64,000 nucleotides of DNA from Gammaproteobacteria bacterium (GTDB taxonomy: Bacteria; Pseudomonadota; Gammaproteobacteria; CBDBNL01; JAAOII01): the NCBI GenBank assembly GCA_965207945.1, contig OZ242303.1, forward strand, positions 61,199 to 125,198, given 5' to 3'. The first letter of the stretch is position 1; every line of letters begins with the position of its first letter. The notes under the pieces are model-generated. The model did no database searches. It had not been told where the DNA came from and saw only the letters and a list, made by a program, of their open reading frames with translations. Positions 12,356-62,723 of this stretch are shown here, one piece after another. A program made the position numbers and the translations under genes.

Positions 12356-12718
12356 ATGAAAGAGAAAATGAAGTTTAATTACGGCAACGTTAGGCGCATA
12401 CCTGATAATCTATCTGGGGTTTATGCATTTTGGGTTTTCCCTGAGGCTATTAGTGTTTGGCGATGCCTTTATATTGGAAAAGCAGACGTTTGCTTAAAGA
12501 AAAGATTAAAAAATCACTGGGATAGAGAACCTAGTGTAGGGAAAGATTTTATTGATGATAGAGAGGTATACTCAGATGATTTGTACTTTTGTTACTATTC
12601 AAGGAGTTATCTAGATAAGCAAAAGGTACATAACTTGGAGAGTATGCTAATTAAAAAATGGGGGCCTGATAGTAATACTGTCAAAAAAATTAAGAAATTA
12701 AAGTATAATAGAAAGTGA
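12356..12718 (+). CDS. GIY-YIG nuclease-family protein (120 aa).
   Basis: The GIY-YIG motifs are visible: GVYAF…YIGKA…RLKNH, followed by a conserved Glu. Confidence 0.65.
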   Translation: MKEKMKFNYGNVRRIPDNLSGVYAFWVFPEAISVWRCLYIGKADVCLKKRLKNHWDREPSVGKDFIDDREVYSDDLYFCYYSRSYLDKQKVHNLESMLIKKWGPDSNTVKKIKKLKYNRK

Positions 12719-12754
12719 ATTTAGTAATAATTAACCGAAGAGGAAATTAATAAC

Positions 12755-15243: not shown

Positions 15244-15254
15244 GTAGTGTTATA

Positions 15255-40476: not shown

Positions 40477-40591
40477 GGAACCACATAAAGTTATGGATAA
40501 TTTTATTAAAACAATGATGTCGCTCCACATTATTTATAAATTTAGTGCGGGTCCTCTCCATCTCGTCCAATTCACTCAAACCTACTTATAT

Positions 40592-42540: not shown

Positions 42541-42570
42541 GTTGTATTTTGGAGGGGATAGTGTTATAAT
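42541..42570 (+). promoter_or_regulatory. Candidate sigma-70 promoter for P2: TTGTAT, 17 bp, TATAAT.
   Basis: -35 at 42541-42546, a 17-nt spacer and a perfect -10 at 42564-42569. It lies in the 285-bp gap upstream of the second GLUG-repeat gene. Confidence 0.4.
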
Positions 42571-42646
42571 GGGCTTCTGTTAAATAAAGGGATTTAATAG
42601 AAGGGATTATTATACAAAGGGGATTTATACACAAGGGGTGATTCAA

Positions 42647-46355: not shown

Positions 46356-48908
46356 ATGAGGAGGAAGTTCATAGAGAAGCTTATTAAGTTTCAGGCGGCA
46401 TTGATGCCGTGGCATGTCTTTAACAAACATAACATAAGCATTGTAATTTTATCATTTATGGCTTTAGTGCTAACATCTTGTGGTTCAAGCGATAATTCTG
46501 GGACTACGCGCCCGTTTGTCAACGAAGTTATTTCAGTGGAACAAAATGCGCCTATACTGGATAATGAGGGCAATCTGGAAAGAAGCGGACATCTTTTTGT
46601 TAGCTTATCCGTAGACGAATTATTTTGGCGGCAGGTATCACAGGCAACAAGTAAAATAGAAGTTGTTAATGAAGATACTGAAGAGAGTGTAGAAATAACG
46701 GTTCCCCTTGCCTATCTGGCAAATAGCTGGAGGGTTGATTTTGGTTTTGTCTATCCTGGCAACTATACCCTTGCCGCAACCTTTTCTCGTGTAGATGGCG
46801 TAAATATAAACGGCACAGACATTGCTTATATTGAAACTCCTATTCAGATTACTCAGGGCGAAGAAGAAAACTCCTTCATTTATTTTGATGTAGATTCTGC
46901 TCTTATTATAATTCCACCGCAGAGGTTAGTGGACACAGATGGTAACGGTCTGCTGGAAATAATAGATATGGCTCAATTTGAAGATGTCCGTGGAAATCCA
47001 AACGGCAACTATGAGTTGACGCGTGATTTTGACCTGACGAGATACCTCAATTACAAAACTCCTATTGACTCCATGGACTATAGATTAGGACGTAGCTTTG
47101 GGAAATGGCAGCCCATCGGCAAAGATGAGTTTACTCCTTTTACTGGCATATTTGAAGGTAACGGTTATACCATTAGCGGCGTTTCCGTTGAGGGGTTTGA
47201 GTATACTGGCTTTTTTGGCTATGTTAGGGGAGCAACAATTAGCAACACTGACTTTAACATAACGAGCATCAGCGGCAATTCTCATGTTGGCGGTTTAGCG
47301 GGCATTGCAACAACTAATAGCCGCATCAGCAATGTGAATGTTACTATAAGTGGAGATTTATCTAGCACAGCTTTAAATGACAAAGATAACTTATTTGTCG
47401 GTGGTCTACTCGGAAAGGGTGATGATATTTTTATGGTTGATTCTTATGCTACTATTGAGGGGGATATCTATGCAAGTGGCGGAGCTTCATCGCGAGTAGG
47501 TGGATTAGCTGGCAACATATATCGCAGCATAATTCAAAACCCTAAGGTCAGGGTTGCTGGAGATATACTATTGTCTGCAACTGGGGATGATTCATTAGGT
47601 GGAGGATTGGCTGGCATGTCAGAGCAAAACCAAATAATCAATCCGCAAATTACGGTTGGCGGCAAAATATCTTCTTTCCCAGTTCTTGAGTCCGCTAGTA
47701 ATTTTGTAGGTTCTTTTAAGTTAGGTGGCATGGCAGGCATAGCTTATGATACTGATATTAAAAATATTACTATTGAAGTTGATAATGGTATCATGGCTCA
47801 ATCCGCAGGGTATTCCTACTTGGGCGGTTTAGCCGGAGATATGGATGGCACGGATATACAAGAGGCACTTATTCGTATAGGTCAACCTATCAGTGCTGAA
47901 CTGTTAGATAGTGGCAGCTGGGTTGGAGGCGTGGCAGGAAGTGCCCGTAATGCTCTGGTGAATGCTACCGATGTGATTGTTGATGATCTAAAGATTACCT
48001 CTTCTGCACAAGCTAATAATTATGGCGGCGGCTTATTCGGCTTTGCTCGCCAAGTTGATATGGCTTCTATAGTTTTATCCGTAGAAGAGGTTGATGTTTC
48101 TGCGATTAATCATAATGCTTTTGCTGCTGGTTTGATTGGTGTTAGTGAGGATAATAATATCAACAAAGTGTCTATGTCCGTAAATAAGATCACTGCCTCT
48201 GCCCCACGTTCAGAGGGCTACAGCAGCGGCTTGATAGGGGTATCGGATGGCGATGAAATTACTGATGTATTTTTGGGCACCTCCTCTACCATAAATGCTG
48301 TTGGGCGGACAACTACCTCAGCAACAGGAGGGATTGGTTCTTTTGTTGACGGCACTCTATCATCATCATATTTTCTTATGGGTGGTAATATACACTCATT
48401 ATCAATGGGTGAAGTTAATGAGTTGGCTAATACTTATGCATCAGGAGTTGTAGGGTTTTGTAGTTTTTGTGAGATGAGTAACATTTATGTAGAGGCGGAA
48501 AGAAATATAAGCGCTTCCGCGACAGGAACGGTCTCAGTCGGCGGCATTATAGGAGCAGCAAGTTCTGCTTCAGTTATTACAAACTCTTACGCGGTTATCA
48601 GGGGAGATATATCTGCGCCTTACCCTCATTCTTATACTGGTGGATTAGCAGGATGGATATTAAATGGTGAGCTGGCAGCAACTGGAGTTTATTATCTGGC
48701 AAATCGCGCCACAAGCCAGAACAGTGGTATTTTTGAGAGTTCAGCTGGTGAGGCACGTAGTTTGCAACAGCTAAGTTGTCCTACTGCACCCAATGCCAGC
48801 TGCGAACTCCAGGGAAATGGCGTTACCTATTCTGATTGGGATGAGAGTATATGGAACTTTGGCACGACAGACGATCTGCCAGAATTACGGATTTTTCAAA
48901 ATTTTTAA
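46356..48908 (+). CDS. P3: GLUG-repeat surface lipoprotein (850 aa).
   Basis: GGAGG Shine-Dalgarno, lipobox VLTSC, the W(Q)PIG…FTGIFEGNGYTISGVS module, then GGLAG/GGLVG beta-helix-type repeats. The conserved C-terminus is ELQGNGVTYSDWDESIWNFGTTDDLPELRIF. Confidence 0.75.
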   Translation: MRRKFIEKLIKFQAALMPWHVFNKHNISIVILSFMALVLTSCGSSDNSGTTRPFVNEVISVEQNAPILDNEGNLERSGHLFVSLSVDELFWRQVSQATSKIEVVNEDTEESVEITVPLAYLANSWRVDFGFVYPGNYTLAATFSRVDGVNINGTDIAYIETPIQITQGEEENSFIYFDVDSALIIIPPQRLVDTDGNGLLEIIDMAQFEDVRGNPNGNYELTRDFDLTRYLNYKTPIDSMDYRLGRSFGKWQPIGKDEFTPFTGIFEGNGYTISGVSVEGFEYTGFFGYVRGATISNTDFNITSISGNSHVGGLAGIATTNSRISNVNVTISGDLSSTALNDKDNLFVGGLLGKGDDIFMVDSYATIEGDIYASGGASSRVGGLAGNIYRSIIQNPKVRVAGDILLSATGDDSLGGGLAGMSEQNQIINPQITVGGKISSFPVLESASNFVGSFKLGGMAGIAYDTDIKNITIEVDNGIMAQSAGYSYLGGLAGDMDGTDIQEALIRIGQPISAELLDSGSWVGGVAGSARNALVNATDVIVDDLKITSSAQANNYGGGLFGFARQVDMASIVLSVEEVDVSAINHNAFAAGLIGVSEDNNINKVSMSVNKITASAPRSEGYSSGLIGVSDGDEITDVFLGTSSTINAVGRTTTSATGGIGSFVDGTLSSSYFLMGGNIHSLSMGEVNELANTYASGVVGFCSFCEMSNIYVEAERNISASATGTVSVGGIIGAASSASVITNSYAVIRGDISAPYPHSYTGGLAGWILNGELAATGVYYLANRATSQNSGIFESSAGEARSLQQLSCPTAPNASCELQGNGVTYSDWDESIWNFGTTDDLPELRIFQNF

Positions 48909-48933
48909 TATGATTAACAGGGAGGATTAATTT

Positions 48934-51690
48934 ATGCAAGCGGAGGTTATTAAAACAAGGGCTATTATGGCTGTCTTGTTGCTGGCAGCACTGTTCAGCG
49001 GCTGCAGTTCCAGCAGTAAATCAAACAGCAGTGGGGCGTCACAGAATCCAGCGCAGAGTCGCGGGGAAGCCAGGGAAGAGCTGGGGACGATAAAAGAACC
49101 GGCTTCAAGTGGCGAGATAAACAATGAATATAGTCCAGGCAGTGGGCGTCTTATTGTTAAGTTGGAAATTCTTGATAACTTAATTAGTTATGAGCAGGTA
49201 TCGTATGCGCGAGTCCATATAACTCCGCAGGACCTGACGGGCAAGGTGGGAGAATATTTATCGCTGCCAGAAGATTCCGCACCACAAGATGAGATTCCAC
49301 TTGACATTGATGCCTCGCTGGGCATTGATGTAGCGCTTAGCGTGGGGGATGAAAGCGCCCGTCTGGACTTTGGCTATGTTGCTTTTGGACGCTACATCCT
49401 CAATGCGACAATCTATCATAACAACGGCAGAGCTCTTGCTTATAGCGAATTACTTATTGATGTTGGCTTGGCGGACGATGTCCAAGTTGGCGACTCCCAA
49501 GTTGGCGACTCCCAGATTGACGACACCCAGATTGACGACACCCAAACAGGCGAAGCAGAAGTTCCAATAGAGTATATTCGTCCGAATCCTGATGCGACAG
49601 ATACCGCTTTAGCGGAATATACAGCTACACTCATTTTTGATTTATCTTCGGCTTTGTTTCGTCTGGTAACTCTGCCGTTAGTTTTTACTGATGATGATAA
49701 TGATGGACTACTGGATGTCTGGCATCCCGCCTATCTTGCAGCAATTGCTAATGACTTAGATGGCGGATTGGATGGCAGCTATGAACTGACAGAAGATATT
49801 GACTTATCTTCCTATGATAACCGGGGAAACTGGGACAACCGGGGAAACTGGCAGCCACTGGGCAGTGAAGAGCAGCCCTTTAGGGGAACTTTTGTTGGCA
49901 ATGGTCATAGCATTAGAGGTCTCTCCGTCAAGGGACATAGCAGAGCCGGCTTATTCGCCGCTTTAGATGGAGCGAGCGTAAGAGACCTGATGGTTGAGGT
50001 GTGGCAGATTAATGCATCTAACTATAATGATGCTTCATATAGCGCTGGTTTTGCGGGAGCTGTTGCGGGGCTTGCCACTCATAGTACTTTTGCCAACATT
50101 ACAGTTGAGATGAATTCTTATGACGATGAATCACCATACATAACTGCATTTGCACAAGATGGTGTAACTTATGTTGGTGGCTTGGTTGGCCGCGTCAGGA
50201 ATAGCGTCATAGATAACACAACAATTATGGCGAACGGCATAATATCAGCCATGTCATTGGGAGATGACTATAGGGCACGTTCTTACGTTGGTGGATTGGC
50301 TGGATTAGTTAATCTATTCAATGAAATTACAAATGTTGAAGTTGTTGGGGAAGTTGATTTGCTGGCGAGCAGCTTTGATGGGGTATCAATGGGTGGTCTG
50401 ATAGGGTCGCTAACAAGGAGTGAAGTTAGTGCGGCAAGGGTTGCACTTAGCGGCGACATAATATCTTATAGTGATAATAATTATTTATTATCTGGCGGCG
50501 CAGTGGGAGAATGCAGCAGCTCTCCTATTGTTGATATGAATATTTTTGTTGAAGGAAATATACTGGCGGAATCATCCGGGGGTGGTGGTGATGTCTATGT
50601 TGGCGGAGCTATTGGGGAAGCAGACCGTTGCAACATTATCAATTTAAAAACAGATACTTATGGGACCATTAGCACTACAGGCAGTTATGCGGATAGAACT
50701 TATTTTAGCACAGGAGGTTTAGTGGGTTTTAGTCAACGGACGGAAACTAATCATGTTACGGTTACGCATAATGGCGATTTGCTTTCATTGGGTGATTCTT
50801 GCTATGTTGGTGCTGTAGTGGGTTACTCCTATTATGAAATAATGAATAATGTATCCGCAACAATTAATGGCAATCTAATCGCTGGAGCACCTAATAGTGA
50901 AGTTGGTATTTCTTTTAATTGCCATGTCGGGGGTATACTCGGTTATTCAGAAAATCTTATTGTAAGCAATTCTTATGCCATAGTTAATGGAGATGTTCTC
51001 TCTTATGCTAATAATAACCCTGCTAAGGCGGGAGGAATTGTGGGGAAAAATGAGAAAGACATAGAAATTGATAACTCTTATGCATTGATTAAAGGCAACT
51101 TGGCTGCCACTTCATTTTTTGCGCCGACTTATATAGGCGGTTTGGTTGGCGACTCTGATGGTGAGCTGTTGATAGTCCATGATTCTTATGTTCAGATTTT
51201 AGGCAATATAACCCTGCGGAGTATTTTTTCTGAGGATGAAAATGTCTCTTCTGGTGGAAACTTTGTTGGCATAACAAAGGGAGCTTATTTTGCTAACTCT
51301 TATGTTTTTATTGGCGGCAAGGCATCTGCCATAAATATACCGGTGCTCGGCACTTCTTCACCAGCCGTCTTTGGCGGTGCCTGGGGTGAGACAAAGATGA
51401 CTAACAATGACCCATATAGTATAACGTTGAGCTCGTCTTATTATAGGTCGCAGCGCGAGTTAGGTGAGGGTGGTTTTAATAGCGCTGAAGTGGACGGTGA
51501 TGCGATTGATGTAGATCGCAGTGACTTGCAACTACGTTGCCCGCAAGCGGCGGGACAAAATTGCGGAGGAGCCGTAACGCCAGGCAATCCGCAAACTTAT
51601 GTCGGTTGGGATGAGAGCGTATGGGACTTTGGTGCGGCAGACGAACTGCCCAGATTAAGAGTTTTTCCAAGTACTAATTTATTGGATTGA
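48934..51690 (+). CDS. P4: GLUG-repeat surface lipoprotein (918 aa), a member of the near-identical paralog set P4-P8.
   Basis: The GGAGGATTAATTT-ATG ribosome-binding site and lipobox LFSGC are conserved. So are the N-terminal ~130-aa block (GRLIVKLEILDNLISYE…), the DDDNDGLLDVWHPAYLAAIA and NWQPLGSE(E)QPFRGTFVGNGHSI(R/S)GLS module, and the C-terminus QLRCPQAAGQNCGG…TPGNPQTYVGWDESVWDFGAADELPRLRVF. Confidence 0.8.
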   Translation: MQAEVIKTRAIMAVLLLAALFSGCSSSSKSNSSGASQNPAQSRGEAREELGTIKEPASSGEINNEYSPGSGRLIVKLEILDNLISYEQVSYARVHITPQDLTGKVGEYLSLPEDSAPQDEIPLDIDASLGIDVALSVGDESARLDFGYVAFGRYILNATIYHNNGRALAYSELLIDVGLADDVQVGDSQVGDSQIDDTQIDDTQTGEAEVPIEYIRPNPDATDTALAEYTATLIFDLSSALFRLVTLPLVFTDDDNDGLLDVWHPAYLAAIANDLDGGLDGSYELTEDIDLSSYDNRGNWDNRGNWQPLGSEEQPFRGTFVGNGHSIRGLSVKGHSRAGLFAALDGASVRDLMVEVWQINASNYNDASYSAGFAGAVAGLATHSTFANITVEMNSYDDESPYITAFAQDGVTYVGGLVGRVRNSVIDNTTIMANGIISAMSLGDDYRARSYVGGLAGLVNLFNEITNVEVVGEVDLLASSFDGVSMGGLIGSLTRSEVSAARVALSGDIISYSDNNYLLSGGAVGECSSSPIVDMNIFVEGNILAESSGGGGDVYVGGAIGEADRCNIINLKTDTYGTISTTGSYADRTYFSTGGLVGFSQRTETNHVTVTHNGDLLSLGDSCYVGAVVGYSYYEIMNNVSATINGNLIAGAPNSEVGISFNCHVGGILGYSENLIVSNSYAIVNGDVLSYANNNPAKAGGIVGKNEKDIEIDNSYALIKGNLAATSFFAPTYIGGLVGDSDGELLIVHDSYVQILGNITLRSIFSEDENVSSGGNFVGITKGAYFANSYVFIGGKASAINIPVLGTSSPAVFGGAWGETKMTNNDPYSITLSSSYYRSQRELGEGGFNSAEVDGDAIDVDRSDLQLRCPQAAGQNCGGAVTPGNPQTYVGWDESVWDFGAADELPRLRVFPSTNLLD
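49483..49555 (+). repeat. Internal 15-bp x~5 in-frame repeat in P4 (QVGDS QVGDS QIDDT QIDDT QTGEA). Shorter versions occur in P5 (~52273-52310) and P8 (~60511-60565).
   Basis: caagttggcgactcc and cagattgacgacacc units lie head to tail. Confidence 0.8.
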
Positions 51691-51715
51691 CATGATTAAC
51701 AGTGAGGATTAATTC

Positions 51716-54442
51716 ATGCAAGCGGAGGTTATGAAAGCAGGGGGGATTACAACAAAGGGGATTACAACAAGAACTGTTATAGTGTTTTTGTTGCTGGCAG
51801 TCCTGTTCAGTGGCTGCAGTTCTAGCAGCAACTCAGGTGGTGCAAAATCGCCAGGGACGCCACAGCAGCCAGAGCAGAGTCGCGGGGAAGCTAGAGGAGA
51901 AGCTGGCGCGGGGCAACAACCGACTTCAAGCCCAATTTCAAGCGGTGAGATAAACAATGAATATACTCCTGGTAGTGGTCGCCTTATTGTTAAGTTAGAT
52001 ATTCTTGATAACTTAATTAGTTATGAGTCAGTATCGTTTGCGCGAGTATATATAACTCCGCTGGGCATAGATGCTGCGCATGATATTGATGACTCGCTGG
52101 GCATAGATGCCTCGCTTAGCATTGATGTTGCGCTTGATGTGGGAGATGAAAGCGCCCGTCTGGATTTTGGTTATGTTGCTTTTGGACGGTATATCCTCAA
52201 CGCGACAATCTATCACAGCAACGGCAGTGCTCTTGCTTATAGCCAGTCACTTATTGATATTGGTTTGGCGGATGACACCCAAGTTGGCGACACTCAAACA
52301 GGCGAAGCAGAAATCCAAATAGAATATATTCGTCCGAGTCCTGATGCAACAGATCCCAACTTAGCGGAATATACTGCCACGCTCATTTTTGATTTATCTT
52401 CATCTTTATTTCGTCTGGTAACTCTGCCATTAGTTTTTACTGATGATGATAATGATGGACTACTGGATGTTTGGCATCCCGCATATCTTGCGGCAATTGC
52501 TGATGACTTGACTGGTAGTTATGAATTAACGGCAGATTTGGATTTATCCTACTATAACGGTTGGGGTAACTGGCAGCCGCTGGGTAGTGAAGCATTACCT
52601 TTTAGCGGAACTTTTGTCGGCAATGGTCATAGCATTAGCGGACTCTCTAGCAAGGGATATAACAAAGCTGGCTTATTCGCCGTTGTAGAAGGAGCGAGCA
52701 TAACCGACCTTATAGTTGAGGCGTGGCAGATTAATGCATCGGACTATTACTATTCAAACGGTAATTTAAACGGAGATTTAAATGGGGCTTCTTATGCTGG
52801 CGTTGTTGCAGGTCTTGCCCGTTCCAGCACTTTTGCCAACATCACAGTTGTGATGAATTCTTATGACGATGAATCACCATATATAACTGCGTTGGCGCAA
52901 GATGGCGCAACTTATGTTGGTGGTTTGGTTGGTCGCGCCAGCAATAGCATTATAGCTAACACAACAATTGTGGCGAGTGGCATAATATCAGCCAATGCCT
53001 GGGGGAATAATAGTAGAGCGAAATCTTATGCTGGTGGGCTGGCAGGGTTGGTTGATGAAGGCAGTGAAGTTATGAATGTTGCGGTTACTGGGGAAGTTGA
53101 TGTGCGGGCGGACGGATTAACTGAAGCATTATCAGGCAATAAGTATGCTGGCGGTTTGTTAGGTAGAATAAATGATAGCAGAATAAGCGCGGTGAAAGTT
53201 GAGCTTAGTGGCGACATAATAGTTGATAATGGCAATTATTTATCAGCGGGCGGTGCAGTGGGCAACTGCAGGCACTCTTCCGTTGTTGATATGAATATTA
53301 TTATTGCTGGCAATATATTGGCGGAGTATTCTGGCAGGAATAACGATGCGGCTGCTGCTGGAGTACTTGGTGAGGTATTTCGTTGTGACATTACTAATGT
53401 AGTAAGCAAGTTCTTCGGTTTAATCAGCGCTGAAGGTTATGGTTATGTGACTGCAGGAGGGTTAATGGGATATGCTGAATATACGGCAATCAGCAATGTT
53501 AAGGTTACCCACCATGGCGATTTACTCTCATCAGGTGATTATTGCTACGTTGGCGGTTTAGCAGCTTACCACTCTTCATCTACTGCTCCCATACATAATT
53601 CATCCGCAATAATTAATGGCAATATAATTGCGGGGGTACCTAATAGTGAAGTCGGAGTTTACCTTGATTGCGAAGCTGGAGGGATGATTGGTTATTTATC
53701 TGGAGGCACTATTAATAGTTCTTATGCCATAGTTAATGGAGATGTTCGCTCTTATTCTAGTGGTAAACCTTCTGAGGTGGGAGGATTTGTGGGGAGTGGC
53801 ACTGGTGAACTAAAAATTGAGAAATCTTATGCATTGATTAAAGGTAACTTGGTTGCCTCTTCATTTTTTGCGCCAACTTATGTTGGCGGTGTAGTCGGCA
53901 TCTCTTATGGTTCGTTGGTGACAGTCCGCGATTCTTATGTTCATATTTTAGGCAATATAACCCTGCGGAGTATTTTGTCTGAGGATGACGCCATTTCTTA
54001 TGGTGGCAATTTTATCGGCAGAGTAAAGGGAGCTAATTTTGCTAACACTTATGTTTTTATTGGTGGCACGGCATCTGCCATAAATATACCAGAGATCGGT
54101 ACTTCCTCGCCGGCTATCTTTGGCGGCGTTTGGGGTGCTATTTCAAAGAGGACTGCCAATGAATCGCATAATATCACATTTAGCTCTTCTTATTATAGAT
54201 CGCAGCGCGAGCCAAGGGAGGGTGATTTTAACAGCGCTGATGTGGGCGGCGATGCAATTGATGCGGCTCGTAGTGATTTGCAACTACGTTGTCCGCAAGC
54301 GGCGGGACAAAATTGTGGCGGACTCATAACACCAGGCAACCCACAAACTTATGTCGGTTGGGATGAGAACGTATGGGACTTTGGTGCGACGGACGAGCTG
54401 CCCAGATTAAGAGTTTTTCCAAGTACTAATTTATTGGATTGA
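51716..54442 (+). CDS. P5: GLUG-repeat surface lipoprotein (908 aa), paralog of P4.
   Basis: It has the same conserved 5' and 3' blocks and ribosome-binding site as P4, with a divergent central repeat region. Confidence 0.8.
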   Translation: MQAEVMKAGGITTKGITTRTVIVFLLLAVLFSGCSSSSNSGGAKSPGTPQQPEQSRGEARGEAGAGQQPTSSPISSGEINNEYTPGSGRLIVKLDILDNLISYESVSFARVYITPLGIDAAHDIDDSLGIDASLSIDVALDVGDESARLDFGYVAFGRYILNATIYHSNGSALAYSQSLIDIGLADDTQVGDTQTGEAEIQIEYIRPSPDATDPNLAEYTATLIFDLSSSLFRLVTLPLVFTDDDNDGLLDVWHPAYLAAIADDLTGSYELTADLDLSYYNGWGNWQPLGSEALPFSGTFVGNGHSISGLSSKGYNKAGLFAVVEGASITDLIVEAWQINASDYYYSNGNLNGDLNGASYAGVVAGLARSSTFANITVVMNSYDDESPYITALAQDGATYVGGLVGRASNSIIANTTIVASGIISANAWGNNSRAKSYAGGLAGLVDEGSEVMNVAVTGEVDVRADGLTEALSGNKYAGGLLGRINDSRISAVKVELSGDIIVDNGNYLSAGGAVGNCRHSSVVDMNIIIAGNILAEYSGRNNDAAAAGVLGEVFRCDITNVVSKFFGLISAEGYGYVTAGGLMGYAEYTAISNVKVTHHGDLLSSGDYCYVGGLAAYHSSSTAPIHNSSAIINGNIIAGVPNSEVGVYLDCEAGGMIGYLSGGTINSSYAIVNGDVRSYSSGKPSEVGGFVGSGTGELKIEKSYALIKGNLVASSFFAPTYVGGVVGISYGSLVTVRDSYVHILGNITLRSILSEDDAISYGGNFIGRVKGANFANTYVFIGGTASAINIPEIGTSSPAIFGGVWGAISKRTANESHNITFSSSYYRSQREPREGDFNSADVGGDAIDAARSDLQLRCPQAAGQNCGGLITPGNPQTYVGWDENVWDFGATDELPRLRVFPSTNLLD

Positions 54443-54467
54443 TATGATTAGCGGAGAGGATTAATTT

Positions 54468-57170
54468 ATGCCAGCGGGGGTTATGAAAGCAGGAGGGATT
54501 CAAACAGAGAGGATTCAAATCGGGGAGATTCAAACAGGGGGAATTCAAACAGAGAGGATTAAAACAAGGGCTGTTATAGTGTTTATGTTGTTGGCAGTTC
54601 TGTTGCTGACAGCACTGTTCAGCGGCTGCAGTTCCAGCAGCAACTCAGGTGGTGCAAAATCGCCAGGGACGCCACAGCAGCCAGAGCAGAGTCGCGGTGA
54701 AGCGGGAGGAGAAGCTGGCGCGGGACAACAACCGACTTTAAGCCCAATTTCAAGAGGAGTAATAAACAATGAATATACTCCTGGTAGTGGTCGTCTTATT
54801 GTTAAGTTAGAGATTCTTGATAACTTAATTAGTTATGAGTCAGTGTCGTTTGCGCGAGTATATATAACTCCACTGGGCATAGATGCTGCGCAGGATATTG
54901 ATGCCTCGCTTAGCATTGATGTTGCGCTTCGCTTGGGGGATGAAAGTGCCCGTCTGGATTTTGGTTATGTTGCTTTTGGACGCTATCTCCTCAATGCGAC
55001 AATCTATCATAACAACGGCAGTGCTCTTGCTTATAGTGAATTGTTTATTGATGAGACAGATCCCAGCTTAGCGGAGTATACAGCTACGCTCGTTTTTGAT
55101 TTATCTTCGTCTTTGTTTCGTCTGGTAACTCTGCCATTAGCTTTTACTGATGATGATAATGATGGACTACTGGATGTTTGGCATCCCGCCTATCTTGCAG
55201 CAATTGCTGGCGACTTGACTGGTAGTTATGAATTAACGGCAGACCTGGACTTATCCTCCTGGGGCAACTGGCAGCCGCTGGGCAGTAGAGTTCAGCCCTT
55301 TGAAGGAATTTTTGTTGGCAACGGTCATCGCATCAGCGGTCTCTCCAGTCGGGGATATAGCAGCGCCGGCTTATTCGGTGTTGTGGAAGGAGCAAGCATA
55401 ACAGACCTGATGGTTGAGGTGTGGCAGATTAATACATCGGGCTATTATTCTTTAAATGGACATTTTTTAAGCAGTAATTCAAGCAGTAATTCAAGCAGTG
55501 ATTCAAGCGGTGCTTCTTATGCTGGTGCTGTTGCGGGAGCTGTTGTAGGTTTGGCACGTTCTAGTATTCTTGCCAACATCACAGTTATGATGAGTTCTTA
55601 TAATAATGAATTGCCATATATAACTGCATTTGGGCAAAATGAAGCAACTTATGTTGGCGGCTTGGTTGGTCACGCCAGCAATAGCACAATAGCAAACACA
55701 ACAATTATGGCAGCAGGACTAATATCGGGAGCTTCATCAATAGTTAAAAGTTATGCCAAAACTAATGTTGGTGGTTTGGCGGGGTTCGTTGATAATGGTA
55801 GTGATATTATAAATGTTGCGGTTACAGGTAAAGCGGATGTGCAGGCAGGTGGACTCCTTAATGTATTGTCAGGCAATTATATATCTGGCGGACTGTTAGG
55901 GAGAATAAGGCATAGCAGAATGAGAGAGGTAAGAGTTGCACTTAGCAGTGACATAACAACCTATAATGGTAAATTTTTATCAACCGGCGGCGCAGTGGGC
56001 GAATGCTTCAGGTCTTCTGTTGTTGATATAAATATTGTTGTTGCTGGCGATATACTAGCGGAGCATCCGCTCACTAATGGATATGCGTATGCTGGCGGAG
56101 TACTTGGCGAAGCTTATGAGTGCGGCATTACTAATGTAGTAAGTGAGACGTTCGGCTTAATCAGTGCTGTAAGTTCCAGTTTTACGTCTGCAGGAGGGCT
56201 AGTGGGTTATGCCGAATATGTGACAATCAGCAATATTAGGGTTGCCCATCATGGTGATGCATTCTCATCGGGTAAGTATTGCAACGTCGGTGGTTTAATG
56301 GGTTACTACTCTTTTTTAGATGATGAATCCATAAATAATACATCCACAATAATTAATGGCAATCTAATTGCCGGGAAGGATAATAATCCAGCAAGAATTC
56401 ACTTTAATTGCCAGATAGGAGGGATGATTGGTTATTTGGAAGGCGGCGCCATTAATAATTCTTATGCCATAGTTAGTGGAGATGTTCAATTATATTCTAA
56501 TGGAGAGAATGTTGCGGTGGGAGGAATGGTGGGGCGCAGTGCAACAGACATATTGGAGATTACGAATTCTTATGCATTGATTAAAGGCAACTTGGCTGCC
56601 GTTTCATTTTTTGCGCCGGCTTATGCTGGTGGTTTGGTTGGCATCTCTGAGGATAAATTTATGACAGTCCGCAATTCTTATGTTCAAATTTTAGGCAATA
56701 TTACTCTGCGGAGTATTTTGCCAGAGGATGATGCCATCTCTTATGGTGGCAATTTTATTGGATTAGTGGAAAGAGCTAGCGGCAGTTTCACTAACACTTA
56801 TGTTTTTGTTGGCGGCGCGATATCATCTATTCGTGATTCCTTGCCGGCTATCTTTGGCGGCACTCGGGGGAGTATTAGTACTGCCAAAGAATCGCATAAT
56901 ATCACATTTAGCTCGTCTTATTATAGGTCGCAACGCGAGCTAAGCGAGGGTGATTTTAACAGCGCTGAAGTGGGTGGCTATATAACTGATGTGGCTCGCA
57001 GTGATTTGCAACTACGTTGTCCGCAAGCGGCGGGACAAAACTGCGGCGGACCTGTAATGCCGGGTAATCCGAAAACTTATGTTGGTTGGGATGAGAGTGT
57101 ATGGGACTTTGGTGCGGTGGACGAGCTGCCCAGATTACGAGTTTTTTCTCTAATCAATATATTGGATTAA
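54468..57170 (+). CDS. P6: GLUG-repeat surface lipoprotein (900 aa), paralog of P4.
   Basis: It has the same conserved blocks. The signal-peptide n-region carries 5 copies of the 15-bp pentapeptide repeat (GIQTE RIQIG EIQTG GIQTE RIKTR). Confidence 0.8.
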   Translation: MPAGVMKAGGIQTERIQIGEIQTGGIQTERIKTRAVIVFMLLAVLLLTALFSGCSSSSNSGGAKSPGTPQQPEQSRGEAGGEAGAGQQPTLSPISRGVINNEYTPGSGRLIVKLEILDNLISYESVSFARVYITPLGIDAAQDIDASLSIDVALRLGDESARLDFGYVAFGRYLLNATIYHNNGSALAYSELFIDETDPSLAEYTATLVFDLSSSLFRLVTLPLAFTDDDNDGLLDVWHPAYLAAIAGDLTGSYELTADLDLSSWGNWQPLGSRVQPFEGIFVGNGHRISGLSSRGYSSAGLFGVVEGASITDLMVEVWQINTSGYYSLNGHFLSSNSSSNSSSDSSGASYAGAVAGAVVGLARSSILANITVMMSSYNNELPYITAFGQNEATYVGGLVGHASNSTIANTTIMAAGLISGASSIVKSYAKTNVGGLAGFVDNGSDIINVAVTGKADVQAGGLLNVLSGNYISGGLLGRIRHSRMREVRVALSSDITTYNGKFLSTGGAVGECFRSSVVDINIVVAGDILAEHPLTNGYAYAGGVLGEAYECGITNVVSETFGLISAVSSSFTSAGGLVGYAEYVTISNIRVAHHGDAFSSGKYCNVGGLMGYYSFLDDESINNTSTIINGNLIAGKDNNPARIHFNCQIGGMIGYLEGGAINNSYAIVSGDVQLYSNGENVAVGGMVGRSATDILEITNSYALIKGNLAAVSFFAPAYAGGLVGISEDKFMTVRNSYVQILGNITLRSILPEDDAISYGGNFIGLVERASGSFTNTYVFVGGAISSIRDSLPAIFGGTRGSISTAKESHNITFSSSYYRSQRELSEGDFNSAEVGGYITDVARSDLQLRCPQAAGQNCGGPVMPGNPKTYVGWDESVWDFGAVDELPRLRVFSLINILD
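54492..54566 (+). repeat. A 15-bp tandem repeat of 5 copies in the 5' coding end of P6. The same repeat family is present in 2 copies at 51740-51769 (P5), 4 copies at 57205-57264 (P7), 5 copies at 59955-60029 (P8) and 1 degenerate copy in P4.
   Basis: The unit is (g/a)(g/a)gg(g/a)gatt(c/a)aaaca. It is in-frame and encodes the pentapeptide G-I-(K/Q/T)-T-x in the signal-peptide n-region. Confidence 0.85.
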
Positions 57171-57195
57171 TATAATTAACGGAGAGGATTAATTT

Positions 57196-59907
57196 ATGCA
57201 AGCAGGGGGGATTAAAACCGGGGGGATTAAAATAGAGAGGATTAAAATAAAGATTATTAAAACAAGAGCTGTGATAGTGTTTTTGTTGTTGGCGGTTCTG
57301 TTGATGACAGCGCTGTTTAGTGGCTGCAGTTCCAGTGTCAACTCAAATAGTAGCGATACTACACAGAATCCAGAGCAGAGTCGCGGGGAAAGCAGAGAAG
57401 AACTGGGAGAAGAATCTGGAGCAGTAGAACAACCAAATTCAAGCCCAATTTCAAGAGGAGTAATAAATAATGAATATAGCCCAGGCAGTGGCCGTCTTAT
57501 TGTTAAGTTGGATATTCTTGATAACTTAATTAGTTATGAGTCGGTATCGTTTGCGCGAGTCCATATAACTCCGCTTGACATTGATGCTGCGCTGGGCATA
57601 GATGCTGTGCAGGGCATTGATGTTTCGCTTGGCATAGATGCTGTGCAGGGCATTGATGTTTCGCTTGGCATAGATGTTGCGCTTCGTGTGGGCGATGAAA
57701 GCGCTCGTCTGGACTTTGGCTATGTTGCTTTTGGACGCTACTTCCTCAATGCGACAATCTATCATAGCAACGGCAACGCTCTTGCTTATAGTGAATTACT
57801 GATTGATGCAACAGACCCCAGTTTAGCGGAATATACAGCAACGCTCGTTTTTGATTCATCTTCGGCTTTGTTTCGTCTGGTAACTCTGCCACTTGTTTTC
57901 AATGATTATGATAATGATGGACTACTGGATGTTTGGCATCCCGCCTACCTTGCGGTAATTGCTAGCGACTTAGATGGCAATTATGAATTGACGGCAGATT
58001 TGGATTTATCCTCCTATTCTAACTGGCAGCCACTGGGCAGTGAAGATCAGCCCTTTAGAGGAACTTTTGTTGGCAATGGTCATCGCCTCAGTGGTTTATC
58101 CAGCAAGGGATATATGAATGCCGGCTTATTCGGTGTTGTGGAAGGAGCAAGCATAACAGACCTAATAGTTGAGGCGTGGCAGATTAGTTCCTTGGACTAT
58201 GATAACTCCAATGCAGGCGCTATTGCGGGGTTAGCCCGTTCCAGCACTTTTGCAAATATCACAGTTGTGATGAGTTCTTATGACGATGAATTATCTTATA
58301 TAACTGCGGTTTCTCAAGATGATACCGTTAGTGCAGGCGGTTTGTTTGGTCGCTTCAGAAATAGCACTATAGCTAACGCAAAGATTATGGCAGCAGGACT
58401 AATATCAGGAATTTCATCAAAAGTTGAAGGTTCTGCCAAAGTTTATGTAGGCGGCTTGGCAGGATATGTTTATAGGGGTAGTGATATCATAAATGCTGAG
58501 GTTATGGGTAAAGTGGATGTACAGGCAGGCGGTATCTTTGGAAATTCAACGGGCGATTATAAATCTGGCGGACTGATAGGGAGAATTAGTCGTAGCCGAC
58601 TTAGAGAGACAAAAATTATGCTTAGCGGAAACATAACAACTCATAATGGAGATTATCTAACATCTGGCGGCGCGATGGCTAAATGCGGGAGTTCTTCTGT
58701 AGTTGATATGGATATTGTTATTGTTGGCAATATACTGGCGGAAAATCCCACCATTAAAGATAGCGTCCTTGCCGCTGGAGTTATTGGTGAGAACAGTAAT
58801 TGTAGTATAAATAATGTAACGGCAGAAATATTTGGTTCAATAAGAGCCACCTCCACTTATGCTAAGTATGCGTTTTCTGGAGGGGTACAGGCAGGAGGGG
58901 AAAATAAATACGTTACTGATGTAACTCAAATTAGTGATATTATGGTTACAGTTCATGGTGATGTGCTTTCTTCAGGAAAGAAATGCGCTTCTGGGGGTTT
59001 GGGAGGAAACCAGAATAACAACATTAATATAAATAATTCGTCTGTAACTATTTATGGCGATATAATTGCTGGAAATCTTATAGAGGGAGACACTTATTTT
59101 ACTTGTAGTGGTGGAGGAATATTCGGCTCATTAAGTGGAGGAGTTATTAATAATTCTTATGCCATAGTTAATGGGGATGTTCGCTCTTATGCTAATGGAA
59201 GAACTTCTAAGGCGGGAGGCATGGTGGGCGTTAATATCTATCCATTAGAGATTATGAATTCTTATGCATTGATTAAAGGTAATTTAGATGCTACTGCATT
59301 TATTAAGCCAGTTTATGTTGGTGGCTTTGTTGGCAACTCTTATGGTTCACTATTTGTAGAGCGCAATGATTATGTCTCGTCGTTAGGCGTTCGTGATTCT
59401 TATGTTCAGGTTTTAGGCAATATGACCCTGCGGAGTATTTTGCCCGAGGATAATGCCCTCTCTTATGGCGGCAACTTTATTGGTGTAGGACAGACAAGCA
59501 TTTTCACCAACACTTATGCTTTTGTTGGTGGCACGATATCAGCTATTATTGATTCCACACCAGCCACTTTTGGCGGTATCCAGGGGCGTATTATAGATGG
59601 GAGTTTCGTAAAGGCGGCACGCGATGAACTACATAATATTTCATTAACCTCATCCTATTATAGGGGGGAGAGAGATCTAAGTGAGGATAACTTTAATAGC
59701 GCTGATGCTGACGGGGATGCAGTTTCTGCAGCGCGTAGTGATTTGCAACTGCGTTGTCCGCAAGCAGCGGGACAAAACTGCGGCGGACCTGTAATGCCTG
59801 GCAATCCGCAAACTTATGTCGGTTGGGATGAGAGCGTATGGAACTTTGGTACGCCAGACGAGCTTCCCAGATTACGTATTTTTTCAAACATTAATATATT
59901 GAATTAA
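57196..59907 (+). CDS. P7: GLUG-repeat surface lipoprotein (903 aa), paralog of P4.
   Basis: It has the same conserved blocks, 4 N-terminal pentapeptide repeats, and an internal 36-bp x2 repeat (GIDAVQGIDVSL). Confidence 0.8.
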   Translation: MQAGGIKTGGIKIERIKIKIIKTRAVIVFLLLAVLLMTALFSGCSSSVNSNSSDTTQNPEQSRGESREELGEESGAVEQPNSSPISRGVINNEYSPGSGRLIVKLDILDNLISYESVSFARVHITPLDIDAALGIDAVQGIDVSLGIDAVQGIDVSLGIDVALRVGDESARLDFGYVAFGRYFLNATIYHSNGNALAYSELLIDATDPSLAEYTATLVFDSSSALFRLVTLPLVFNDYDNDGLLDVWHPAYLAVIASDLDGNYELTADLDLSSYSNWQPLGSEDQPFRGTFVGNGHRLSGLSSKGYMNAGLFGVVEGASITDLIVEAWQISSLDYDNSNAGAIAGLARSSTFANITVVMSSYDDELSYITAVSQDDTVSAGGLFGRFRNSTIANAKIMAAGLISGISSKVEGSAKVYVGGLAGYVYRGSDIINAEVMGKVDVQAGGIFGNSTGDYKSGGLIGRISRSRLRETKIMLSGNITTHNGDYLTSGGAMAKCGSSSVVDMDIVIVGNILAENPTIKDSVLAAGVIGENSNCSINNVTAEIFGSIRATSTYAKYAFSGGVQAGGENKYVTDVTQISDIMVTVHGDVLSSGKKCASGGLGGNQNNNININNSSVTIYGDIIAGNLIEGDTYFTCSGGGIFGSLSGGVINNSYAIVNGDVRSYANGRTSKAGGMVGVNIYPLEIMNSYALIKGNLDATAFIKPVYVGGFVGNSYGSLFVERNDYVSSLGVRDSYVQVLGNMTLRSILPEDNALSYGGNFIGVGQTSIFTNTYAFVGGTISAIIDSTPATFGGIQGRIIDGSFVKAARDELHNISLTSSYYRGERDLSEDNFNSADADGDAVSAARSDLQLRCPQAAGQNCGGPVMPGNPQTYVGWDESVWNFGTPDELPRLRIFSNINILN
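57580..57690 (+). repeat. Internal 18/36-bp in-frame repeats in P7 (GIDAVQ GIDVSL x2 plus flanking LGIDAA/LGIDVAL units).
   Basis: ggcatagatgctgtgcagggcattgatgtttcgctt is duplicated exactly. Confidence 0.8.
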
Positions 59908-59945
59908 TATATTGAATTAATATAATTAAAAGAGAGAATAAATTT

Positions 59946-62678
59946 ATGCGAGCCGGGGGGATTAAAACAAAGGGGATTAAAACAAAGGGGGATAAAACAG
60001 AGATGATTAAAACAGGGGGGATTAAAATAAAGGGGGCTATTATAGCTGCCTTGTTGCTGGCAGCGCTGTTTAGCGGCTGCAGTTCCAGTGTCAACTCAAA
60101 CAGTAGCGATCCGCCACAGAACCCAGAGCAGAGTCGCGGGGAAGGCAGGGAAGAACTGGGAGCAGAATCTGGAGCAGTGGAACAACCAAATTCAAGAGGA
60201 GCGATAAACAATGAATATAGTCCGGGCAATGGGCGTCTTATTGTTAAGTTGGAGATACTTGATAACTTAATTAGTTATGAGTCGGTATCGTTTGTGCGAG
60301 TAGATATAACTCCTCAGAGCATAGATGCTGTGCAGGGCATTGATGCCTCGCTTAGCATTGATGTTGCGCTTCGCGTGGGGGATGAGAGTGCCCGTCTGGA
60401 TTTCGGCTATGTCGCTTTTGGACGCTACCTCCTTAATGGGACAATCTATCATGGCAACGGCAACGCTCTTGCTTATAGTGAATTGCTTATTGATGTTGGT
60501 TTGGAGGACGACCCCCAGATGGACAACATCCAAATCGGCGTCGCCCAAACGGGAGAAACAGAAATACCAATAGAATATATTCGCCCGAATACTGATGCAA
60601 CAGATCCCGCTTTAGCAGAGTATACAGCCACGCTCGTTTTTGACTCATCTTCTGCTTTGTTTCGTTTTGCAACTCTGCCACTTATTTTCACTGATGATGA
60701 TAATGATGGACTACTGGATGTTTGGCATCCCGCCTACCTTGCAGCAATTGATGGCGACTTAGATGACAGTTATGAATTGACGGCAGATTTGGATTTATCC
60801 TCCTGGGGCAACTGGCAGCCACTGGGTGATGATGCACAGCCCTTTAGAGGAATTCTTATCGGCAATGGTCATCGTATCAGCGGTCTCTCCAGTAAGGGGT
60901 ATAGCAGCGCTGGCTTATTCGGTGTTGTGGAAGGAGCGAGCATAACAGACCTGATAGTTGAGGCGAGGCATATTAATGCATCGGGCGGGTATTTAAATGA
61001 AATTTTAAACAATGCTAGTTTTGCGGGAGCTGTTGCGGGGCTTGCTCGTTCCAGCACTTTTGCGAACATCACAGTTGTGATGAGTTCTTATGACGATGAA
61101 TCGCCCTACATAACCGCATTTTCTCAGGATGGTGTATCTCATGCCGGCGGTTTAGTTGGTCGTGCCAGCAATAGCACCATAGCCAATACAACGATTGCGG
61201 CAAGCGGCATAATATCAGTTACCTCTTGGGGGGATAACTTTTATTTAGAATCTTATGCTGGTGGACTTGCGGGGTTGGTTGATGAGGGCAGTAGAATTAT
61301 GAATATTACGGTTACCGGGGAAGTTGATGTGCTAGCAAATGGTATAAGTGAAGCATCACCAGGCGACCGTATCTCAGGCGGCTTAATAGGGGTGATAGAT
61401 GAAAGCCAAATTAGCGCAGCAAGGGTTATGATTAGCGGAAATATAAAAACTGATAATGGTGAATATTTATCATCTGGTGGTGGAATGGGTTCTTGTGGCA
61501 GTTCTTCTATTACTGACGTGAATATTGTTATTGTCGGAAATATACTGGCGGATAATTTTGTATCTGGTGATACCTTAGCTTCTGGCGGAGCTATTGGCGG
61601 GATTAGCAGTTGCACCATAACCGATATAAAGGTAGAAATATTTGGTTCAATAAGAACTATCACTGATTATTATGCTTATGCCTTTTCTGGGGGGCTATAT
61701 GGATACATTGTTGATGGTTCTCAAATTAGTAATATCAAGGTTACAGTTCATGGTGATGTATTTTCTTCTGGAGGGGAATGCGCTTCCGGGGGGATGGGGG
61801 GATACCAGGGTAGCAATATCAATATGAATAATTTGTCCGCAACTATTTATGGCGATATAATTGCTGGGGAGTTTATAGAGAACGATATTATTATTGCCTG
61901 TAATGGTGGGGGGATGCTTGGTGAATCACGAGGAGGCGTTATTAATAGTTCGTCCGCCATAGTTAAAGGAGATGTTCTATCTTATTCTAACGGGGATTCT
62001 GCTGAGGCAGGAGGAATGGTGGGACGCAATACAGCCCCATTGGAGATTATGAACTCTTATGCATTGATTACTGGAGATTTAGTTGCTACTTCATTTCTTG
62101 CATCTTCTTATGCTGGTGGTTTTATTAGCAGCTCTTATAGTCGGACTGGTATAACGAGGAATAATCTTCTTTTTAATAGGGATTCTATAGTAACGGTAGG
62201 CAATTCTTATGTTCATATTTTAGGCAATATAACCTTGCGCAGTATTTTGCCTGAGGATGACGCTGTCTCTTCTGGCGGCAATTTCATTGGCAGAGGACGG
62301 CTAAGCAGTTTTACTAATACTTATGTTTTTGTTGGCGGCACTATATCAGCCATTCGCGATTCCTTGCCAGCTATCTTTGGCGGTTCTTGGGGGACGATAG
62401 GAGGGGTTGCAGTTGACTCTTACAATATCACGCTAACCTCATCCCATTATAGGGGCGAGAGGGAGCTAAGCGAGGATGACTTTAATAGCGCTGATGCTGC
62501 TGGAGATGAAATTGCTGCGGCACGTAGTGATTTGCAACTGCGTTGTCCGCAAGCGGCAGGACAAAATTGCGGCGGAGATATAACTCCAGGCAATCCGCAA
62601 ACTTATGTCGGTTGGGATGAAAAGATATGGGATTTTGGCACGGTAGACGATCTGCCCAGATTAAGAATTTTTCAATAA
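59946..62678 (+). CDS. P8: GLUG-repeat surface lipoprotein (910 aa), paralog of P4.
   Basis: It has the same conserved blocks and 5 N-terminal pentapeptide repeats (GIKTK GIKTK GDKTE MIKTG GIKIK). Confidence 0.8.
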   Translation: MRAGGIKTKGIKTKGDKTEMIKTGGIKIKGAIIAALLLAALFSGCSSSVNSNSSDPPQNPEQSRGEGREELGAESGAVEQPNSRGAINNEYSPGNGRLIVKLEILDNLISYESVSFVRVDITPQSIDAVQGIDASLSIDVALRVGDESARLDFGYVAFGRYLLNGTIYHGNGNALAYSELLIDVGLEDDPQMDNIQIGVAQTGETEIPIEYIRPNTDATDPALAEYTATLVFDSSSALFRFATLPLIFTDDDNDGLLDVWHPAYLAAIDGDLDDSYELTADLDLSSWGNWQPLGDDAQPFRGILIGNGHRISGLSSKGYSSAGLFGVVEGASITDLIVEARHINASGGYLNEILNNASFAGAVAGLARSSTFANITVVMSSYDDESPYITAFSQDGVSHAGGLVGRASNSTIANTTIAASGIISVTSWGDNFYLESYAGGLAGLVDEGSRIMNITVTGEVDVLANGISEASPGDRISGGLIGVIDESQISAARVMISGNIKTDNGEYLSSGGGMGSCGSSSITDVNIVIVGNILADNFVSGDTLASGGAIGGISSCTITDIKVEIFGSIRTITDYYAYAFSGGLYGYIVDGSQISNIKVTVHGDVFSSGGECASGGMGGYQGSNINMNNLSATIYGDIIAGEFIENDIIIACNGGGMLGESRGGVINSSSAIVKGDVLSYSNGDSAEAGGMVGRNTAPLEIMNSYALITGDLVATSFLASSYAGGFISSSYSRTGITRNNLLFNRDSIVTVGNSYVHILGNITLRSILPEDDAVSSGGNFIGRGRLSSFTNTYVFVGGTISAIRDSLPAIFGGSWGTIGGVAVDSYNITLTSSHYRGERELSEDDFNSADAAGDEIAAARSDLQLRCPQAAGQNCGGDITPGNPQTYVGWDEKIWDFGTVDDLPRLRIFQ

Positions 62679-62723
62679 TATTGATATTATTGTATTAATA
62701 TAATCAATGGAGAGGATTAATTT

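Follow-up and report, generated by a model that had tools for sequence, protein, structure and literature searches.

An in-frame 15-bp repeat of variable copy number in the signal-peptide n-region of tandem GLUG-motif lipoprotein genes

Results

A pentapeptide repeat opens five tandem lipoprotein genes

We analysed 64,000 nucleotides of the chromosome of an uncultured gammaproteobacterium (assembly GCA_965207945.1, contig OZ242303.1, positions 61,199 to 125,198 of the forward strand; hereafter the window), in which five tandem paralogous genes for GLUG-motif lipoproteins, P4 to P8, carry a 15-bp repeat just after the start codon. The repeat is in frame, encodes a pentapeptide within the n-region of a lipoprotein signal peptide, and differs in copy number both among the paralogues and among strains. 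From the sequence we tentatively read it as an in-frame minisatellite that is changed by slippage and recombination and that would build an extended lipoprotein n-region. We found no published description of an in-frame pentapeptide repeat of variable copy number in a lipoprotein n-region.

All five signal peptides share one layout: M-x-A, n units of the form x-x-(I/M)-K-x, R or G, a hydrophobic core and the lipobox LFSGC. The repeats had been placed upstream of the core and the lipobox by the first-pass annotation, and this is what we see in each of the five genes:

48934-49005 (+): P4 signal peptide, MQAEVIKTRAIMAVLLLAALFSGC, with the single unit EVIKT at 48943-48957
51725-51769 (+): P5 array of three units, EVMKA GGITT KGITT, the last two being 100% identical 15-mers; signal peptide at 51716-51817
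54477-54566 (+): P6 array of six units, GVMKA GGIQT ERIQI GEIQT GGIQT ERIKT; signal peptide at 54468-54629
57205-57264 (+): P7 array of four units, GGIKT GGIKI ERIKI KIIKT; signal peptide at 57196-57327
59955-60035 (+): P8 array of five units, GGIKT KGIKT KGDKT EMIKT GGIKI (followed by KG); signal peptide at 59946-60080

The unit counts for P4 to P8 are hence n = 1, 3, 6, 4 and 5 when the degenerate first unit (EVMKA or GVMKA) is included. The first-pass annotation had counted 1, 2, 5, 4 and 5 copies of G-I-(K/Q/T)-T-x; we reproduced these numbers codon by codon, the degenerate first unit having been left out of them, and the span that it gave (51740-60029) excludes the single unit of P4.

Tandem Repeats Finder reported 15-bp arrays at 51742-51770 (1.9 copies, 100% match), 54496-54566 (4.7 copies), 57203-57262 (3.0-3.6 copies) and 59957-60035 (5.3 copies). 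The core GGATTAAAACA, with at most one mismatch, matches the window 12 times against 1.85 expected, a number reached by 0 of 100 shuffles, and 11 of the 12 matches fall inside the four arrays of P5 to P8. Taken together, 91 units give the DNA consensus RRG RKK ATT AAA AYA, which encodes x-x-I-K-T/I. Codon choice in the units is uniform and unlike that of the genome: glycine is GGG, which makes up only 12-19% of glycine codons elsewhere, glutamate is always GAG, and lysine is always AAG at position 1 and always AAA at position 4. Such uniform, genome-atypical choice is expected for common descent by duplication. A two-unit DNA pattern gave nine matches in JGI metagenomes, none at a lipoprotein signal peptide and all judged to be chance, and a search with a 68-aa signal peptide gave no match.

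Copy number differs between strains and the frame is kept

To compare copy numbers we used 36 alleles from at least eight assemblies, comprising the window, the DNA of contigs L001, L003, L004 and L005, and N-termini from other assemblies. The orthologous locus is also present in OZ242292.1, and two further genomes were compared only at the protein level. All strains compared are separated by at least 2% divergence in the P4-P8 genes, and the differences are hence between strains and not within one population. Copy number proved variable, as the first-pass annotation had proposed, with different counts at every orthologous slot: 1-3 units in P4, 1-5 in P5, 3-6 in P6, 2-7 in P7 and 3-7 in P8. 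The n-region ranges from 9 to 40 aa; its length is always 4+5k residues, or 5k in P8, and differences between alleles are multiples of 15 nt. Moreover, 36 of 36 alleles are open from the ATG to LFSGC, which agrees with the earlier statement that the repeat would not switch genes off. With a 15-nt unit and every allele in frame, the arrays differ from a phase-variable contingency locus of the simple-sequence-repeat type, where a change of length shifts the frame or the spacing of the promoter.

Identical neighbouring units, together with a duplicated 30-bp double unit in P8 of L005 (GIKIKWIKIK x2), point to recent slippage. The DNA of P4-P8 orthologues is 89-98% identical, and in-frame indels separate them at 3-11 further sites, most of which fall within the first ~1 kb; the n-region array is a consistent indel hot spot, one among several. 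Two contigs from one sample (ERZ25069764) differ by ~5% in P7.

Two genes carry the 5' end of another paralogue. In L003, P4 (4416) has a P8-type 5' end (MRAGGIKIKW...). In L001, P6 (7572) has a P7-type 5' end, lacks a spacer and ribosome-binding site (RBS), follows P5 after only 3 nt and encodes a shortened protein of 791 aa. Judged by sequence, these ends are signs of exchange between the tandem paralogues, by gene conversion or recombination.

The arrays are almost certainly read from the upstream ATG

In each P4-P8 spacer an RBS, GAGAGGATTAATTT, stands after the stop codon of the previous gene and immediately before the ATG:

48920-48933 (+): RBS of P4, GGGAGGATTAATTT, directly 5' of the ATG
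51702-51715 (+): equivalent RBS of P5
54454-54467 (+): equivalent RBS of P6
57182-57195 (+): equivalent RBS of P7
59932-59945 (+): RBS of P8, weaker, GAGAGAATAAATTT
62710-62723 (+): equivalent RBS of P9, the next gene

The ATG upstream of the arrays is kept in 22 of the 22 genes read as DNA, with an in-frame stop one codon 5' of it, and in most genes (7 of the 8 family genes in the window) a Shine-Dalgarno (SD)-like GAGGA lies 7 nt before it. Within open reading frames (ORFs) the spacing of the repeat motif is strictly 15 nt in all alleles, whereas it is 13, 14 or 16 nt in the non-coding arrays described below. The isoleucine codons of the units vary synonymously (ATT, ATA, ATC). Past the arrays, GTG codons in the h-region are the sole candidate starts, and these would yield a signal peptide without a charged n-region. 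Translation from the upstream ATG, as assumed in the first-pass annotation, is thus well supported by the kept ATG and SD, the upstream stop and the strict spacing, and this sequence pattern makes it almost certain that the repeats are part of the translated product, from which signal peptidase II would then cut them.

In the region from -20 to -4, SD-like 4-mers precede 7 of 8 GLUG lipoprotein genes and 3 of 28 other ORFs in the window, with starts as called; guaB, purL, hisD and rpsA have none there. The genome may be SD-poor.

The signal peptides have a lipoprotein-type layout

The n-region of the 36 alleles has a net charge of +1 to +12 and never less than +1, as is characteristic of lipoprotein n-regions. 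It is followed in all P4-P8 alleles (by inspection) by an uncharged h-region of 11-16 residues ending in L-F-S-G-C, which makes a lipobox. Charge climbs with copy number in P5 (+1 to +7) and in P8 (+5 to +12), where KGIKT and KWIKI bring +2 each. The notion that the repeats hyper-charge the n-region therefore holds for these two genes; it fails for P6 and P7, where length grows but charge does not. Glutamate paired with lysine (E/K), and ER with Q, hold the charge of a unit at zero or above, GEIQT being the single exception.

The Lol pathway sorts lipoproteins by the residues after the lipidated cysteine, when the n-region has already been removed by signal peptidase II. A role of the repeats in sorting, which had also been put forward, is unlikely because the n-region is gone before these residues are read. 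Furthermore, repeats removed with the signal peptide make no contribution to antigenic variation.

Three other classes of N-terminal sequence were considered and set aside. A Tat signal peptide does not fit, as RR is seen only in some P8 alleles, in MRARRDKTE, where 10-30 residues separate it from the h-region and F-L-K is missing. ESPR (PF13018) gave no profile match in a Pfam scan of P4, P8 and the ORFs 40451, 42638 and 46356, which returned Glug or nothing. Neither did the pentapeptide-repeat family (PF00805, A(D/N)LXX) give a Pfam match, and x-x-I-K-T, which sits in the signal peptide, is unrelated to it.

The locus encodes predicted beta-helical surface proteins

GLUG-motif lipoprotein genes, all on one strand, fill the 3' quarter of the window:

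40451-42352 (+): GLUG-type lipoprotein gene
42647-46333 (+): P2, GLUG-motif lipoprotein, ATG at 42647
46356-48908 (+): P3, GLUG-motif lipoprotein
48934-62678 (+): P4-P8, five tandem paralogues for GLUG-motif lipoproteins whose core is predicted to be a right-handed beta-helix
62724-64000 (+): P9, next GLUG-type lipoprotein gene, which begins at 62724; this is its part within the window

The products of P4 to P8 are 918, 908, 900, 903 and 910 aa long and 57-66% identical in pairs, and their genes are separated by spacers of just 25-38 nt. PF07581 (GLUG) was detected in P4 (E 1.5e-12) and is precomputed for homologues of P4-P6; P8 itself was below threshold. An AlphaFold2 model of P8 shows a confident right-handed beta-helix at residues ~280-800 (predicted local distance difference test, pLDDT, mostly >85). 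Compared with PDB structures, the model was closest to the N-domain of IgA1 protease (weak, E 0.011) and to autotransporter passengers, and a PDB sequence search with P8 gave no match. The GLUG motif matches and the predicted beta-helical repeat architecture place P4-P8 in the GLUG family. The mature proteins begin with CSSS..., followed by a low-complexity Ser/Gly/Pro/Gln tether, and look like surface-anchored, beta-helical, adhesin-like proteins.

An extended n-region or a tolerated by-product

In the reading that we prefer, the array would have arisen when (G)-I-I-K-T-(K/R), an n-region element ancestral to this family of GLUG beta-helix surface lipoproteins, was duplicated, and its copy number would shift by replication slippage, unequal recombination or gene conversion among the five tandem paralogues. 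Initiation at the conserved ATG would make the repeats as a lysine-rich n-region of 9-40 aa in a signal-peptidase-II signal peptide, and they would be cut off with it by LspA and be absent from the mature lipoprotein. The outcome would be a graded, heritable change in translation initiation, membrane targeting or Sec translocation kinetics, neither ON/OFF nor antigenic. The arrays would then be this lineage's own counterpart of an extended signal peptide, built from repeats, with slippage supplying the length alleles.

Long n-regions do recur in the family: they measure 28-33 aa in P2, ~27 aa in P3, 32-34 aa in genes of contig L015 and ~60 aa in protein P0025. L015 belongs to a metagenome-assembled genome labelled Candidatus Portiera sp., and its homologues are ~30% identical. 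Its genes B and C have 15-bp n-region repeats of their own, GAAAATCACTGAAAT, in 3.0 and 2.0 copies, encoding MKITEMKITEIGQIE. A distant full-length homologue has one GIIKTK only, and this comparison suggests I-K-T-K/R as the ancestral element from which the array expanded. This recurrence, together with the presence of ESPR on the GLUG proteins of other bacteria, is why we prefer this reading.

Several observations weigh against it. The units added in P6 and P7 (EGIKI, GGIQT, ERIQT) are net neutral, the charge there staying at +2 to +6 across n-regions of 14-39 aa. At P4 and P5 some alleles have a single unit and an n-region of 9 aa (P4 of the window, P5 of L003, P0013 and P0022), so that long arrays are dispensable at least at these two slots, and no slot has a conserved copy number. 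The same genes carry 5-8 other in-frame indel hot spots and purL has a 45-bp in-frame repeat, so that a purely mutational, tolerated origin fits equally well. Finally, some features of the units favour a constraint on the nucleic acid itself: invariant synonymous positions, alternation of codons sharing only NGG, and untranslated arrays of the same motif.

The most serious competitor, and one that we hold to be possible if less likely, is that the arrays are a near-neutral by-product: the genome, and these surface-protein genes above all, would be prone to in-frame tandem duplication, the n-region would accept nearly any polar or cationic insert, and the arrays would drift with no meaningful phenotype. 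The one-unit alleles and the lack of a fixed copy number per slot speak for it, as do the further in-frame indel sites of the orthologues, the 12-, 15-, 18-, 36- and 54-bp arrays inside P4-P9 and the 45-bp x3.6 repeat of purL. So does the predicted accessibility of the RBS, which is indifferent to copy number (rho 0.04, 22 alleles). On the other hand, extended n-regions persist at ~30% identity, including the independent 15-bp arrays of L015; net charge falls below +1 in no allele, and the pairings of glutamate with lysine and of ER with Q keep units from turning negative, GEIQT excepted. In addition, the array in the leader of P2 (see below) is nearly identical in two strains whose upstream DNA cannot be aligned.

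Should copy number tune synthesis or export as in the preferred reading, it would amount to a contingency mechanism of a new, quantitative kind that acts on surface display, and the alleles (1-7 units, +1 to +12) would form a natural series for studying how the length and charge of the n-region influence the handling of big beta-helical cargo by SRP, SecA and LspA. If the arrays are neutral, they show how permissive an n-region can be, and they caution that software for calling gene starts and signal peptides may get such genes wrong.

The motif also occurs in non-coding arrays

The motif of the units is found outside coding sequence in the leader of P2, whose n-region has a periodicity of its own:

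42586-42660 (+): P2 leader array, non-coding, five motif copies: AAAGGGATTTA, GAAGGGATTAT, AAAGGGGATTTA, CAAGGGGTGATT, then ATG-AGGGGAATTAA
42647-42730 (+): P2 n-region with pentapeptide periodicity (x-K/R-I-N/S-Q), MRGINQSKISQLMANTLRISASKLNSNK

The leader array consists of five AAGGGGATT-type motifs with G-runs 14, 16, 16 and 16 nt apart. It lies 3' of a near-consensus promoter, TTGTAT-17-TATAAT (-10 at ~42564-42569), and 5' of the P2 start. Promoter and leader are nearly identical in L005 (3545-3615), where the DNA upstream is unalignable. The P2 n-region reads RGINQ SKISQ...; clearer 15-nt repeats (LRINQ LKINQ SKINQ) are seen in other strains, one of which has an additional unit. The G-rich motif common to coding and non-coding arrays is AAGGGGATTWA.

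A second non-coding array was observed in L015 (3649-3710; GCA_015163845.1, JAAOII010000049.1), where a 13-bp x4.8 tandem array, GGGATTAAATGGA, stands just 5' of GLUG lipoprotein gene A. Its unit, GGAGGG-ATTAA-ATG, contains a full SD, a 5-nt spacer and an ATG. Three upstream ATGs open short ORFs that end in or just past the array, and the fourth, at 3696, shares the reading frame of the gene.

These arrays bear on a third explanation, to which we give a smaller chance than to the by-product: that what is selected is an RNA element, (A/G)RGGGGAUUWA every 13-16 nt around the translation start, which as an SD-like/GGA array would capture ribosomes or bind a regulator of the CsrA/RsmA type, with copy number setting translation and the pentapeptide being merely what a permissive n-region tolerates. 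Besides the two untranslated arrays, five copies in the P2 leader and 13-bp x4.8 before gene A, it draws support from the genes' real RBS, GAGAGGATTAA, which is nearly identical to an ERI-type unit, and from the SD-like 4-mers before most family genes and few other ORFs. Within the units, invariance is 92-100% at the synonymous positions 3, 12 and 15; amino-acid position 2 is taken by G, R or W, whose codons have only NGG in common, and the rare codons GGG and AGG are used. GGA occurs 5.4 times per 100 nt in the arrays versus 2.1 in genes overall (2.6-fold). CsrA sites are GGA motifs, which may overlie the SD, the start codon and the first stretch to be translated (PMC7652899).

About one third of the units (EVMKA, KIIKT, EMIKT and others), however, have neither GGGG nor GGA, and the coding repeats of P2 and of L015 genes B and C (AAGATTAATCAG, GAAAATCACTGAAAT) have no G-run while keeping K-I-T/N. 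No hairpin presents GGA, which is single-stranded, the five 5' regions folding no better than their shuffles (z-scores -1.0 to +1.6). SD-AUG accessibility does not follow copy number, as noted above, and the spacing is ACA-N4-GGA, as opposed to the ACA-R-GGA consensus from SELEX. Recent duplication, moreover, also predicts conservation of synonymous sites. In a selection test based on the per-position variability of units, distinct mutational events showed no significant synonymous-site deficit, and the frequencies are confounded by duplication. More units did give a weaker overall fold (rho 0.76, 22 alleles), a trivial trend because the array displaces the GC-richer h-region. Taken together, these results leave mixed the suggestion of the first-pass annotation that the repeats double as an array of ribosome- or regulator-binding sites: the motif does recur in non-coding arrays, but RBS accessibility is independent of copy number and the 15-nt repeats of distant relatives lack the G-run.

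A G-quadruplex was set aside by inspection: P8 alone has four or more G-runs, separated by loops of 11-23 nt, and P6 and P7 are incompatible with such a structure.

Improbable, in our estimation, is a combination in which the unit would be dual-coded, being at once an SD-like/GGA site in the mRNA and a cationic n-region pentapeptide, and copy number, changed by slippage, would be an inherited 'volume control' of each paralogue, governing both the amount made and the speed of its export. If this were true, the arrays would be graded contingency loci that work through signal peptide and translation start, not through frameshift ON/OFF. By far the weakest explanation is that translation begins downstream of the arrays, which would then be elements of the 5' untranslated region with annotated N-termini that are longest-ORF artefacts: a conserved internal methionine in P8 (..DKTEMIK..), a second ATG at codon 6 of P5 and P6 with GGAGG before it, and the untranslated units of the P2 leader can be cited in its favour, but most units lie 3' of those internal ATGs and would be translated anyway, the post-array GTG codons give no charged n-region, ATG, SD and upstream stop are all conserved, isoleucine codons vary synonymously, and 0 of 36 alleles has an indel between ATG and lipobox that is not a multiple of three, non-coding arrays being spaced otherwise.

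Comparison with known systems

Bacterial lipoprotein n-regions are normally short, ~5-7 residues. To our knowledge they are not known for repeat polymorphism, and the DNA repeats known in signal peptides work by frameshift. What appears new here is the variable in-frame repeat in a lipoprotein n-region; frameshift repeats, repeats in mature proteins and the conserved ESPR are already known.

GLUG proteins of other bacteria often have ESPR (PF13018) and a TPS domain. ESPR is reported to slow inner-membrane (Sec) export and to prevent periplasmic misfolding of beta-helical passengers (PMC8151025). Like the arrays, it is an N-terminal extension ahead of a normal n-h-c signal peptide on very large beta-helical surface proteins. 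It differs in being a conserved, non-repetitive stretch of ~25 residues on signal-peptidase-I substrates, whereas P4-P8 have a copy-number-variable pentapeptide repeat on a lipobox (signal peptidase II) signal peptide, and no PF13018. By this analogy, the P4-P8 arrays are most likely functionally analogous to ESPR and not a member of it.

Phase-variable repeats in signal-peptide coding DNA are known from Neisseria, where the opa genes have CTCTT repeats. The AAGC repeats of Neisseria autB and autA change by slipped-strand mispairing, and their number differs between isolates (PMC5118866). In these Neisseria genes the units are of 4-5 nt and each change shifts the frame, turning the gene ON or OFF; with the 15-nt unit of P4-P8 all alleles are in frame and an effect could only be quantitative, and our comparison is between strains and not within a clone. 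In-frame repeats that alter antigen size occur in mature surface lipoproteins, such as the AAEAP repeats of Neisseria Lip/H.8 and those of Mycoplasma Vlp. These resemble the arrays in being 15-bp in-frame repeats of lipoprotein genes whose size varies by strain, but they lie in the mature, exposed protein, and the P4-P8 repeats lie in the cleaved signal peptide. The tether repeats of P9 (62831-63082) are of the classical mature-lipoprotein type.

The arrays share with CsrA/RsmA leaders and CsrB-type RNAs the presence of multiple single-stranded GGA motifs over SD, start and early codons (PMC7652899), with one GGA per ~15-18 nt and an RBS that is itself AGGA. They differ from CsrA targets in lacking hairpin presentation, in an ACA-GGA distance that is off consensus and in the many units without GGA. 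We regard the likeness to a CsrA-type target as resemblance only.

Other repeats and neighbouring features

P9 has an ordinary short signal peptide (MKWGLLISALLLAMATTSC), and its 15-bp repeats are in the mature N-terminal tether, with EEQPV x3 and KEEKPP/KEKPP (12.9 copies by Tandem Repeats Finder), unlike those of the L003 orthologue. The N-terminal third of mature P4-P7 has further in-frame arrays at 49482-49546 (15 bp), 52059-52127 (18/36 bp), 55469-55508 (12 bp) and 57572-57684 (18/36/54 bp), with repeats such as DSQVG/DDTQI, GIDAxx and SSNS; strain-to-strain indels also fall in this third. The repeat of purL (7260-11507, minus strand, 1415 aa), 45-bp x3.6 and in frame, is at 8737-8899, and the product of rpoD (4454-7117), of 887 aa, has a long extension at its N-terminus. 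Even housekeeping genes of this genome seem to take up in-frame repeat insertions.

Promoter-like matches are not enriched in the window (49 versus 42 expected). In the P7-P8 spacer (59890-59929) a perfect 13-bp x2.7 tandem repeat (ATTAATATATTGA) makes TTGAAT-16-TATAAT (59899-59926), the only good promoter-like site among the P4-P8 spacers.

The remainder of the window is ordinary chromosome, with guaB, rpoD, purL, rpsA, aroA/tyrA, cytochrome b and hisD, and an Rfam scan of the window found two tRNAs and nothing else. At 12001-16000 (ORFs 12755-17000) lies a low-GC (0.36) segment with a gene for a DGQHR/DndB-like protein that has a strong SD; the segment may have been acquired as an island for DNA modification or defence.

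In L015, two paralogues (5966-6004 and 10407-10445) have a conserved upstream ORF of 12 codons (MFAKNEGGISLK*) whose TGA shares bases with the main ATG (ATGA), which suggests that translation of the two is coupled; a third paralogue has the same MFA... start joined in frame to the lipoprotein. Seven relatives of the ORF at 40451-42352 (P0030, P0031, P0033, P0040, P0048, P0104 and P0160) have an extension of ~45 aa before the lipoprotein signal peptide, MHNFIKKM..LCLRKFNSDATDYVQSTQPTQT(I/T)QTNLY..YRKIRRHISFF..LIACGG, in which the number of TQx triplets varies.

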